Assembly: GCF_003334815.1 (NCBI RefSeq)
Contig: NZ_QOWO01000080.1
DNA: 3,767 nucleotides
Source: Escherichia coli
Lineage (GTDB): Bacteria > Pseudomonadota > Gammaproteobacteria > Enterobacterales > Enterobacteriaceae
Strand: one strand, 5' to 3'
Shown here: in pieces, positions 1-3,767 of the stretch
Position numbering within the stretch: position 1 is the first letter of the stretch
Layout: every line of letters begins with the position of its first letter
Notes under the pieces: model-generated
Databases searched by the model: none
Told to the model about the DNA's origin: nothing
The model's input: the letters and a program-made list of their open reading frames with translations, nothing else
Position numbers and translations under genes: made by a program

Positions 1-38
1 GGGGTTCCGTGGGCATTTCTGCGATAACACACGCTAAG
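1..38. repeat. Terminal inverted repeat (tnpA-proximal end), 38 bp: GGGGTTCCGTGGGCATTTCTGCGATAACACACGCTAAG
   Basis: It has the outer GGGG and inner ACGCTAAG typical of Tn3-family 38-bp IRs (compare Tn3 GGGG...ACGTTAAG). The tnpA stop codon (minus-strand TAG, plus 34-36) sits inside the IR, as is usual for this family. Its reverse complement matches 3751-3767. Confidence 0.85.
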
Positions 39-3000
39 GAAAAGTGAAGTTCTTTGGATTGAAGCGATTAGTACGAAGTGGCCTGTATCGTTCAAGGGGA
101 TGGTCAATTTCGTTCCACAGGTAATCTCCAGTGAGCGAGATATGACCCCATGGTAGTGGTGATACACTGGACAAGAGCTCTTCCGGTATAATGATCCCCT
201 GGTTGCGAATGTAATCAACAGCCCGACTGAGATAGACCGTGTTCCACAGAATTATTGCATTAACAACAAGGTTGAGGCCCGATGCCCTGTGAGCCATTGT
301 CTCGGCAGCCCTGTTCCGGAATTCGCCCAGTTGGTGAAGAAAAATAGCGCGGGCAAGTGCATGGCGGCTTTCGCCTTTGTTGAGGATTGCGTGTGATCTG
401 CGACGTAACCGAGTGTCAAGCAACCAGTCACAGATAAAAATTGAGCGTTCAATACGTCCCATTTCACGCAGGGCCAGATTGAGCCTGTTTTGTCTCGGAG
501 ATGCTGCCAGCTTTTTCAGTATTACCGATGGTGGTACCAGACCAGCGCCGATCGAGGCCTTAAGCCGCAGAACTTCATCCCAGTGCTGTTCTATTACTTC
601 CATTTTGGCCTTTCCGGCGATCAGGGCATCAAGTGGTTTATATTCCTCTGAGGGTGAAATAACGTACAACCTGCGACTGCCGAGGTTGCGAATACGGGGT
701 ATGAGTCTGTAACCAAAAGAGTGAAACATTGAAAATGTTGTTTCAGTCGCACCGGCTGTATCGGTGGCATGCTCATGAATTACCACAGAACTTTCGTTAT
801 GAAGTAAGCCGTCAAGTACGTAGGGAGCCTCGCTTTCAGAGGCCTGAATCATTCTGGAAAAAAAGGATGCAAAACGGTTCGATAAAAAACCATAAATCGA
901 CGCGCCAGGTCGTTTGCCGTATTTGGCGTTATATTCGAGGCTGGCTTCTCCTCGTCCACCCGCAGGAAAAAACTGCCCGTCCGAGGATGACACATGCCCA
1001 TCCCCCCATATAGCAGCAAAAGGATGTTCCTGTTGCGCATCGACCAGAACTGATGTGGCAGACGCATAGGTTTCAGTGCGTAAATGACGATCCATCATTA
1101 CCATCATCTGGTGAATGGTGACACCCCGGGAACTCTGCGCCATCCGTTCTGCTCCCGCATTCGTCGCATCGGCAAGGATCGCAGCCATAAGTGCAGCTTC
1201 ATCTTCCGCCTGTTCCCCGGTGCGATAATGGGTGAAACAATCAAGAAAACTGGTCCAGCTATGAACTTCTGCCAGCAAACTGGTAATTCTGATGCGTGGT
1301 ACCAGCATGTAGAGTTTACGGCTGAGAGCCTTAATTTTGTCGCTCTCTTCTTCGCGAATCGGAGACACAGACAACCCTCTGCTGGAAAGTTCTGCATCGG
1401 GTATGGCATTCTCCGAAGCAGCTTTTGCCAGCGCTTTCAGTTTTGCGTTGAGTGTGGTGGTTCGCTCAGCCCGCCATTCAGCAAAGTTGTCCGGAATGGC
1501 AAGTCCCAGCCGGGATTCTGCCCGCATCTGCCCGAAAACATGGTGAGGAAGAAGGTAGTCCTCAAAACTACGCCAGGCCCGACTACCATCAACCCATATG
1601 TCACCTGTTTTCAGGCGTTCCCGCAAATGAACGAATACGGCGACTTCCCACGCCTGCAGATCGGTATTTTCTCCATGGATGACACGACGTCGCCATTTAT
1701 GGGACATAAAATCGAGCGGAATTTGTTTGGGTAATTTTCGGCCATGATAGAACGCCTGCAAATACCCAATCGCCAACAAAACGCTATCATCCGGGCGAAA
1801 AGCTCTGAAAGAAAAAGCGCTGAAAATGAGTCGTCCAAGCTTACGTAATGATTTTTGTCGTCCGATAAGTTCATCCAGTTCAGAACAGTGATGGGAAGAT
1901 GCCACCGAAGCTGCAGCCTCCATACTGGCAATCAAACCTTCCCAGCCGAGTGATGCTGTTATTACAGATTCAATATCAGTATTACCGTCACGTGCTGCCA
2001 GGAGAGCCCGTCCCAGCTTAATATGATCCTGAGCTACGACTTCAAGTACTTCAGCGGCTTTCAGACGACGCTCTTTCTGGCTTATCTCTGCTCTGCGCCT
2101 CGTGCTGCCAATCAATTTGCAGAACATATCAATTGCCAGATCTGTAATTGCTGCCTGCTTTTCAATAACAAAGGCTACCAGCGTGGCATGACGGCGTTCG
2201 GATGCCATTCGTTGTATTTCACGCGCATGTAAAACGCGAGAATCCCGGGCAATAATACCGTAACGGTTTACATGAATCCGTTTACGTTGCTCATCGGAGA
2301 TTGCCGCTGTTCGTAATACCTCCAGCCTGGCAATTAACCCCTTAAGATTCTTGAGTTTCACGCCTTCCGGCGCTTCAGCTATCCAGCCTAAAATGCTCTT
2401 TTCTCCGACTCGTTCGGTAAGCAACTGCTCGAGAGCGCTAATGGATGAAGGTTTCAGATCCCTGATGAGTTCCCGATAAGAAAGGCGACGGGCAGCCGCC
2501 CGGCCCGCCATTGCCAGACGGATGAGTTGTGCCGGAGCAGGGGCAAGTAACTTCTGGTCCTTCAGCTTATTGATAACTGCTCTGGTGATCGGCAGTCCTT
2601 TTTCGGTGGTTGCTGCTTCGCGTGTAGCCGCGATAATGAGCATTCTGTAATCGCTACTCCGGACGGAACGAAGCTCCAAAGCCGAAACTATTTCGCGGGC
2701 ATGTTCCCGGCGGGTTTCCTCACGTTGTGCGTAAAGTGTAAAAACAGCAGGGTCAATATCCAGTTGTTCCGCAACAACGGTGATAACAGCCTCCGGGGGA
2801 ATCTCTCCTGCACGCAGTGTACGACCGAGATCACGGACAAGTGCAAGCTGAATGGCAAAACCCAGACGGTTATGAGATCGACGATGAGTTCTGGCGAATG
2901 CAATATCCTCGCAGGAGAGCGAAAACCGGGGAAGTGCATCCTCATAAAGTTCAGGTAATCCAAAAAGCGTATCGTACGATTTAGCGTCGAGAAATGACAT
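34..3000 (-). CDS. tnpA: Tn3-family DDE transposase TnpA, 988 aa
   Basis: A single uninterrupted 2967-nt ORF ending inside the terminal IR. The N-terminus carries the NRLGFAIQL motif typical of Tn3-family TnpA. Candidate DDE triad: D674 (SSSDGQ, nt 979-981), D747 (HEHATDTAG, nt 760-762), E877 (NKGES, nt 370-372), with spacing 73/130 aa close to what I recall for Tn4430 TnpA. The ATG at 3000-2998 overlaps the tnpR 3' end. Confidence 0.95.
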   Translation of the reverse strand: MSFLDAKSYDTLFGLPELYEDALPRFSLSCEDIAFARTHRRSHNRLGFAIQLALVRDLGRTLRAGEIPPEAVITVVAEQLDIDPAVFTLYAQREETRREHAREIVSALELRSVRSSDYRMLIIAATREAATTEKGLPITRAVINKLKDQKLLAPAPAQLIRLAMAGRAAARRLSYRELIRDLKPSSISALEQLLTERVGEKSILGWIAEAPEGVKLKNLKGLIARLEVLRTAAISDEQRKRIHVNRYGIIARDSRVLHAREIQRMASERRHATLVAFVIEKQAAITDLAIDMFCKLIGSTRRRAEISQKERRLKAAEVLEVVAQDHIKLGRALLAARDGNTDIESVITASLGWEGLIASMEAAASVASSHHCSELDELIGRQKSLRKLGRLIFSAFSFRAFRPDDSVLLAIGYLQAFYHGRKLPKQIPLDFMSHKWRRRVIHGENTDLQAWEVAVFVHLRERLKTGDIWVDGSRAWRSFEDYLLPHHVFGQMRAESRLGLAIPDNFAEWRAERTTTLNAKLKALAKAASENAIPDAELSSRGLSVSPIREEESDKIKALSRKLYMLVPRIRITSLLAEVHSWTSFLDCFTHYRTGEQAEDEAALMAAILADATNAGAERMAQSSRGVTIHQMMVMMDRHLRTETYASATSVLVDAQQEHPFAAIWGDGHVSSSDGQFFPAGGRGEASLEYNAKYGKRPGASIYGFLSNRFASFFSRMIQASESEAPYVLDGLLHNESSVVIHEHATDTAGATETTFSMFHSFGYRLIPRIRNLGSRRLYVISPSEEYKPLDALIAGKAKMEVIEQHWDEVLRLKASIGAGLVPPSVILKKLAASPRQNRLNLALREMGRIERSIFICDWLLDTRLRRRSHAILNKGESRHALARAIFLHQLGEFRNRAAETMAHRASGLNLVVNAIILWNTVYLSRAVDYIRNQGIIIPEELLSSVSPLPWGHISLTGDYLWNEIDHPLERYRPLRTNRFNPKNFTFP

Positions 3001-3604
3001 TGCTCTGATCCGTTGTCAGATTACGCCCCCCAGGTCCGGCCCAGCCAATTCGTCGTAGAGTATCGGTGAGCGTTGAGCGTGGCACACTGAATGCGCGACA
3101 TACTGACGCTTTACTGGCACCTCCTTCCAGAGCTGCGAGGATTTGATCAACCTTTTCAGCATCTATCGCCGGTGGCCTTCCGCCTTTTCTCCCCCGCCGG
3201 AGAGCAGCAGCCAGACCAGCATTAACGCGTTCTGTGATAAGTGTTCTTTCGTACTCCGCGAGCGTGCCAAAAAGGTTAAAGAGGAACGAGCCGTGTGGCG
3301 TTGTTGTATCAATAGATTCAGTCAATGATCGGAAAGCAATACCACGAATTTTCAGGTCTTCAATAATTCGGAGCAAATGTGAGAGTGAACGACCAAGTCG
3401 ATCCAGTTTCCAGACTATCAGTACATCACCTTCGCGAAGTTCAGCGAGACAGGACTTAAGTCCCGGGCGATTATCACGAGCACCTGAAGCATGATCCTGA
3501 TGTAAATGCCGGGGATCCACTCCAGCAGCAATCAACGCATCACGCTGCAAAGAAACTGACTGACGTTCATCATTGCTTGATACCCGCATATAACCAATCA
3601 ACAT
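2981..3604 (-). CDS. tnpR: Serine recombinase (transposon resolvase TnpR) of the Gin/Hin/Pin invertase-like type, 207 aa from the ATG at 3604. The ORF track extends to a TTG at 3613, which is probably an overcall.
   Basis: The N-terminus MLIGYMRVSSND...LQRDAL closely matches Gin (MLIGYVRVSTNDQ...LQRNAL), placing the catalytic Ser at residue 9 (nt 3580-3578). Conserved blocks VWKLDRLGRS, FRSLTESIDTT and ERV-AGLAAA-RGR-GGRP are present, followed by a C-terminal HTH (RSTLTDTLRR). An AAGG Shine-Dalgarno sits about 10 nt upstream of the ATG at 3604. The stop is TAA at 2983-2981. Confidence 0.9.
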   Translation of the reverse strand: MLIGYMRVSSNDERQSVSLQRDALIAAGVDPRHLHQDHASGARDNRPGLKSCLAELREGDVLIVWKLDRLGRSLSHLLRIIEDLKIRGIAFRSLTESIDTTTPHGSFLFNLFGTLAEYERTLITERVNAGLAAALRRGRKGGRPPAIDAEKVDQILAALEGGASKASVCRAFSVPRSTLTDTLRRIGWAGPGGRNLTTDQSNVISRR

Positions 3605-3750
3605 GTACGACAAACCTTAAAATTGAAGTTTCCGTACAGTTTCTCATTCCGACAGGGTTTGTCACGCAAAAAATCACAGATTTATGGATTCAATTTTCTT
3701 CAACTGCAGGACCTGACGGAAAACAAGTGATTTCCGTCAGGGAGAAATCG
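3605..3750. promoter_or_regulatory. Putative res (resolution) site with embedded tnpR promoter/operator
   Basis: A ~146-bp non-coding region lies between the tnpR start and the right IR, where res sits in Tn21-type elements. It contains a perfect dyad at 3713-3740 and repeated TTCCG(N)CAG half-site-like motifs at 3630-3638 and 3649-3657. No clear sigma70 -35/-10 pair could be assigned. Confidence 0.55.
3713..3740. repeat. Perfect 28-bp dyad CTGACGGAAA-acaagtga-TTTCCGTCAG; candidate res subsite I (crossover site)
   Basis: 10-bp perfect inverted arms flank an 8-bp spacer. The 28-bp length equals a typical serine-resolvase site I. It lies at the tnpR-distal end of the res region, where site I sits in Tn21-type res. 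Confidence 0.5.
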
Positions 3751-3767
3751 CTTAGCGGGTGTTATCG
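3751..3767. repeat. Terminal inverted repeat (res-proximal end), truncated by the window; the inner 17 bp are visible
   Basis: The reverse complement of 3751-3767 is CGATAACACCCGCTAAG, against IR positions 22-38 CGATAACACACGCTAAG (16/17 identical). Orientation and position are right for the opposite transposon end. Confidence 0.8.

Follow-up and report, generated by a model that had tools for sequence, protein, structure and literature searches.

Slightly imperfect terminal inverted repeats (IRs) are routine among transposons of the Tn3 family, and this also applies to the two IRs of Tn21/Tn501-type elements, TnAs1, TnAs3, and ISPa38. Tn5403 represents a small cryptic element of this family, whose sole components are tnpA, tnpR, a res site, and the IRs. 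For Tn4430 from Bacillus thuringiensis, the cryo-EM structure of TnpA on its IR revealed base-specific contacts of DBD1 between IR positions 21 and 36, with the contact between R44 and T36 being conserved (PMC9579193). R97–G32 and R267–G14 were described as the only residue–base pairs that strongly co-vary across the family, and much of the IR conservation was explained not by base contacts but by an indirect read-out of DNA shape (PMC9579193). Furthermore, Tn4430 relies on the tyrosine recombinase TnpI, acting at irs, for cointegrate resolution, and site III adjoins tnpR in the usual Tn3/Tn21 arrangement of res (PMC7157771).

The Escherichia coli DNA analyzed here, a stretch of 3767 nt referred to as the window, represents a nearly complete cryptic Tn3-family transposon of 3788 bp, being short by 21 nt at its res-proximal end. 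The element is organized as IR, tnpA, tnpR, res, and IR, and carries no passenger genes. Its tnpA gene (34..3000, minus strand) is an open reading frame encoding a DDE-type transposase of 988 aa, which matched the NCBIfam model NF033527 (transpos_Tn3) with 922 bits (cut-off 500) and showed full-length homology to the TnpA of Tn4430 (E 5e-152, alignment of residues 12–977). The tnpR gene (2981..3604, minus strand) encodes a serine resolvase of 207 aa featuring the Pfam domains Resolvase (PF00239, 7.5e-43) and HTH_7 (3.5e-5). Its 3′ end overlaps the start of tnpA by 20 nt (window 2981–3000), and the position of the tnpR stop 20 nt inside tnpA suggests coupled expression of resolvase and transposase. 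Between tnpR and the IR, a putative res region of 146 nt (3605..3750) contains clustered, paired half-sites related to TGACGGAAA; 6 of the 20 matches to this motif in the window (≤2 mismatches) fall within it. Candidate site I (3714–3739) is a perfect palindrome of the form TGACGGAAA-N8-TTTCCGTCA, and candidate sites II and III were placed at 3662–3702 and 3629–3654, respectively. The reading of this region as res and the order of the subsites follow from the usual Tn3/Tn21 arrangement (PMC7157771).

Compared to Tn4430, the element features a homologous TnpA and 38-bp IRs of the type GGGG...CACGCTAAG found in both transposons, but encodes a serine resolvase instead of TnpI and differs at IR positions 14 and 31 of its res-proximal end. 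The co-linear order of res, tnpR, and tnpA, with res located upstream of tnpR, corresponds to that of the Tn21/Tn501 type, TnAs1, TnAs3, and ISPa38, which likewise have a serine resolvase, 38-bp IRs, and a 5-bp target duplication. This resemblance is only organizational: the amino-acid identity of TnpA to TnAs1, TnAs3, and ISPa38 is only 36–38%, and all these elements carry passenger genes, in contrast to the element studied here. The same architecture was found in unnamed alphaproteobacterial tnpA–tnpR elements of about 3.8 kb, in the IncP-1 plasmid pSP21 (CP002153.1, where the element is annotated as tnpA3/tnpR), and in a 3792-bp element of Enterobacter sp. JBIWA003. These elements are 3792–3810 bp long, share 72–84% nucleotide identity in tnpA, and possess 38-bp IRs and 5-bp duplications, but bear C/A, C/C, or A/A at position 31 (tnpA end/res end) instead of A/C and differ at several other IR positions. 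In the NCBI annotation of near-identical copies, the genes are termed only ‘Tn3 family transposase’ and, for tnpR, ‘recombinase family protein’, which suggests that the element lies outside the named families. No registered name was found in the literature searched, including full text queried for the IR strings, which returned only primer and vector matches. ISYps3 was ruled out as a candidate (7.3 kb with 34-bp IRs), the pECTm80 paper covers no more than a Tn3-like remnant of IncX1 that it leaves unnamed, and the pSP21 literature provided no name.

The tnpA-proximal IR is complete in the window (1..38, GGGGTTCCGTGGGCATTTCTGCGATAACACACGCTAAG), opening with GGGG and closing with TAAG; under the tnpA-left-to-right convention, it corresponds to IRR. 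Of the res-proximal IR, the window includes the inner 17 nt (3751..3767, IR positions 38–22 as counted from the outer GGGG), and the full IR would reach 3788. A repeat search of the window paired the arms 22–38 and 3751–3767 over 17 nt with 16/17 matches (94% complementary). Since chance alone would yield only about 0.02 inverted 17-mers matching at 16/17 or better per 3767 nt, and since the arms lie exactly at the ends of the tnpA–tnpR–res unit, the IR pair is real. Window positions 22–38 read CGATAACACACGCTAAG and the reverse complement of 3751–3767 reads CGATAACACCCGCTAAG, the sole difference being IR position 31, which is A in the tnpA-proximal IR (window 31) and C in the res-proximal IR (window 3758, G on the plus strand). 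The original prediction, which had taken these features for terminal IRs contacted by TnpA and had described a minor difference between CACACG and CACCCG, was exact in this respect. The ends are those of a Tn3-type element, as all hallmarks of this family that can be read from sequence are present: the transposase, 38-bp IRs of the type GGGG...TAAG, the 5-bp target duplication, and a resolvase next to a res region. The full res-proximal IR (GGGGTTCCGTGGGAATTTCTGCGATAACACCCGCTAAG) was read from 12 plasmid copies of 99.8–99.9% identity to the window and compared with the left end. This uncovered a second mismatch beyond the window at IR position 14, with C in the tnpA-proximal and A in the res-proximal IR; the corresponding base would be window position 3775 and is position 4075 of locus L001. 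Therefore, the mismatch is single as far as the visible part of the IR is concerned, whereas the complete IRs (GGGGTTCC...CGCTAAG) match at 36 of 38 positions.

Copies of the element are widespread. Matches to the window were detected in 373 plasmid records and in 363 of 5426 complete E. coli genomes, 34 of them with at least 80% coverage and with up to nine places per genome, and many copies reside on different replicons of one strain. All 12 plasmid copies examined are 3788 bp long and have the identical IR pair, the tnpA-proximal IR being unchanged throughout. Seven of them are flanked by perfect 5-bp target duplications, each at a different AT-rich site (TATCT, TTATA, TTCTT, TCAAA, TTTTA, AACAT, and ATATA), and duplications were also seen for the relatives at loci L089 (ATTCA) and L095 (TCTCT). 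The remaining five plasmid copies (L019, L026, L001, L002, and L046) are without matching duplications; L019 and L026 share a common left flank and have different right flanks, which fits recombination between copies or intramolecular transposition. Taking all loci from plasmids, genomes, and metagenomes together, the IR sequence of the tnpA end occurred unchanged next to 21 different flanks, and that of the res end next to 23. Degenerate-pattern scans of species-representative genomes and metagenomes added 71 loci to the collection. The scan pattern fixed most of positions 15–38, leaving positions 1–14, 22, 23, 30, 31, and 38 free, so that the variability per position is unusable for ranking position 31 against the fixed positions. 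Taken together, the sequences of these copies demonstrate that the base at position 31 is real and fixed and that both ends are used in transposition.

The window itself deviates from all 12 plasmid copies at positions 203, 655, 2016, 2193, and 3745, the last of these falling in the interval that separates candidate res site I from the IR. Among the copies found, the metagenome locus L081 came closest, with three mismatches, and none was identical. A res-proximal end identical to that of the window, including the window-specific base 3745, occurs in Anaerobiospirillum succiniciproducens DSM 6400 (L011, 2923–2960), a member of the Aeromonadales and hence outside the Enterobacterales hosts dominating the plasmid matches.

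The TnpA studied here retains R40, R93, and R264, which are the equivalents of R44, R97, and R267 of Tn4430, i.e., of the arginines contacting T36, G32, and G14. The IR of Tn4430 (GGGGTACCGCCAGCATTTCGGAAAAAAACCACGCTAAG) is contained, at 100% identity, in 178 plasmid records that stem almost exclusively from Bacillus, and agrees with the oligonucleotide table of PMC9579193. The tnpA-proximal IR matches it at 28 of 38 positions, including C14 and A31. Hence, the base of Tn4430 is found at both mismatched positions in the tnpA-proximal IR and at neither of them in the res-proximal IR. Given the conserved arginines and the Tn4430 contact map, position 31 is predicted by homology to lie within the zone read by TnpA, beside the G32 contact, and position 14 itself would be a contacted base. 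The assumption that inner IR positions are contacted by TnpA accordingly holds by homology with the 21–36 contacts of Tn4430, and a modest difference in TnpA affinity between the two ends is possible.

The comparison with IRs of homologous elements revealed that position 31 varies between A and C at both ends. Counting distinct variants, C31 is present in 17/20 res ends and A31 in 7/10 tnpA ends. The arrangement of the window, with A31 in the tnpA-proximal and C31 in the res-proximal IR, was also found in Xenorhabdus sp. TH1 (86% identity), and C31 at the res end is shared by Morganella and by a relic on an IncX1 plasmid. The reversed arrangement (C/A) occurs in Xenorhabdus koppenhoeferi (L016, 85% identity), where tnpA is truncated and no target duplication is present, and in Enterobacter sp. 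JBIWA003 (L089, 83.7%), where tnpA and tnpR are intact and the duplication ATTCA flanks the element. A Photorhabdus copy (L010) without a long tnpA open reading frame has C31 at the tnpA end; its other end was not found. At 72% identity, the 3809-bp elements of Agrobacterium and Roseibium have intact genes and C/C, no target duplication being seen, and the likewise intact 3810-bp elements of Aminobacter, Rhizobium, Shinella, and pSP21 have A/A, with TCTCT as the duplication in pSP21. Furthermore, a 2277-bp derivative with two A31 ends of the tnpA type is flanked by the duplication ATATA. All four combinations of A and C thus occur among intact relatives, and some of the exceptions (L016, L010, and L005) are copies with a broken tnpA. 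At position 14, the C/A direction recurs in Agrobacterium and Roseibium (72%; L090 and L092), whereas C/C is present in other relatives and A/A in the relics of IncX1. A conserved and hence functional asymmetry had been suggested by the first relatives analyzed; this idea fell to the reversed element L089 and to the C/C and A/A alphaproteobacterial elements, and L016 and L010 with C31 at the tnpA end also counter it, though their tnpA is broken. Selection for one A end and one C end, an idea raised by the A/C and C/A arrangements, was ruled out by the A/A and C/C elements.

Several derivatives and relics of the element were also encountered. The 2277-bp derivative (L035, 9233–11509; a similar arrangement exists in L041) is bounded by two tnpA-type ends, corresponding to window 1–341 in direct and window 592–1 in inverted orientation. 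It encloses approximately 1.3 kb of AT-rich foreign DNA with an open reading frame of 186 aa that weakly matches Peptidase_C58 (YopT-like, E 2.5e-5), and the unit as a whole is flanked by the target duplication ATATA. In Xenorhabdus yunnanensis, a miniature element of 299 bp is present in two copies (L012, 3770–4068, and L013, 744–1042) with different 5-bp duplications (ATTAT and TATTA). One of its ends combines a res-type IR with a site I-like palindrome, and the opposite end has a divergent IR (GGGGCACCGTGGGAATTTCTGCAACAATACACGGTAAC). These miniatures resemble TIMEs, i.e., Tn3-derived inverted-repeat miniature elements. Another derivative of 394 bp, arisen by internal deletion (L008, 401–794; also L054, L057, L059, L063, L070, and L073), has an outer IR mutated to GGCG and constant flanks without target duplication, and therefore resembles a single deletion passed on within a plasmid backbone more than a mobile miniature. 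Backbones of the IncX1 type contain relics of both the tnpA end and the res end of a related element, which are in direct orientation and lie on either side of a ParA-family gene (L007, 289–326 and 1676–1713, in pOLA52; equal spacing of 1387 nt in L033, L053, L064, L079, and L086). In the plasmid search, 162 records fell into the 80–90% identity band, and the matches listed in this band all represented a 198-nt relic (window 3569–3766), except for four tnpA matches.

Regarding the origin of the mismatch, the original prediction had considered a sequencing error. The probability that window base 3758 was misread or misassembled is practically nil: the location of this base 10 nt from the window end is the only point in its favor, whereas the same base is present in 12/12 plasmid copies, and none of the E. 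coli-type copies had another base at position 31 (119 ends in the loci collected at that time), so that every res-proximal end of this type agrees with the window. Furthermore, the relatives of 84–86% identity in Xenorhabdus, in Morganella, and on IncX1 plasmids have C31 at the res end. Because the base recurs in all independent copies from plasmids, genomes, and metagenomes, the mismatch is not a sequencing error. It also seems very improbable that the difference is kept by a signal overlapping one of the ends, such as the 3′ end and stop codon of tnpA, a tnpR promoter, or a resolvase/IHF site. Overlaps do exist, as the tnpA stop codon TAG (reverse complement of 34–36) and the last Pro codon (37–39) lie within the tnpA-proximal IR at positions 34–39, and candidate res site I ends approximately 10 nt from the res-proximal IR. 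However, position 31 is located 3 nt past the tnpA stop and is thus free of coding constraint, a consensus scan detected neither a sigma-70-like promoter nor a terminator-like site over the res-proximal IR, and relatives of the same layout bear the other base at each end. With position 31 outside the tnpA frame and no promoter-like site over it, coding or promoter overlap was ruled out.

A functional asymmetry, in which the res-proximal IR (A14 and C31) would be a weaker or different TnpA site than the tnpA-proximal IR (C14 and A31), is considered unlikely. As a result, the paired-end complex might, for example, be assembled in a set order, or the ends might differ in one-ended transposition or in their immunity signal. 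This proposal is consistent with the location of both mismatches at or beside base contacts of Tn4430 (R267–G14, R97–G32, and DBD1 at 21–36; PMC9579193), with the conservation of the contacting arginines as R264 and R93, with the Tn4430 base at both positions of the tnpA end, with the recurrence of C14 at the tnpA end and A14 at the res end in the elements of Agrobacterium and Roseibium, and with C31 in 17 of the 20 distinct res-end variants. On the other hand, the arrangement is reversed in the intact Enterobacter element with its target duplication, the intact alphaproteobacterial relatives have A/A or C/C, the 2277-bp derivative has a target duplication despite its two A31 ends, and the dominance of C31 at res ends is explained by shared descent. 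An end-specific role, as proposed in the original prediction, is therefore not supported by the comparison, intact relatives carrying A/C, C/A, C/C, and A/A.

The element is probably an active transposon with a fixed and tolerated A/C polymorphism at position 31. The 3788-bp cryptic transposon would be active with two ends differing at positions 14 and 31, and A31 at the tnpA end versus C31 in the res-proximal IR would be an inherited polymorphism that is fixed here, the site itself appearing to switch between these two bases across the clade. The transposases of the clade seem to accept A or C at either end, since apparently functional relatives show all four combinations. As far as can be judged from sequence comparison, these data speak against an effect that is strong or specific to one end, and we infer that the difference probably has little or no effect on the function of the ends. 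Against a neutral reading stands the invariance of the arrangement within the E. coli-type lineage; together with the 17/20 C31 res ends and 7/10 A31 tnpA ends, it could reflect selection rather than shared descent. Moreover, the transposases of the relatives are somewhat different, and their tolerance need not transfer exactly to the element studied here.

In summary, the mismatch is ancient, fixed in the lineage, and ordinary, and the original prediction was right to call it minor. The finding matters little, as the element has already been sequenced and annotated in hundreds of enterobacterial plasmids. It may be of use in annotation, the element being defined by its 3788 bp, its IRs matching at 36 of 38 positions, and ends distinguishable by positions 14 and 31, which helps to call complete copies, solo ends, and miniature derivatives. 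A res end designed as a weaker site for the transposase, with functional asymmetry built into a minimal Tn3-family transposon, appears quite improbable; if real, such a weaker end might order synapsis or damp one-ended events. If the asymmetry alters TnpA affinity, the element would provide a natural test of the Tn4430 contact map at R267–G14 and R97–G32.
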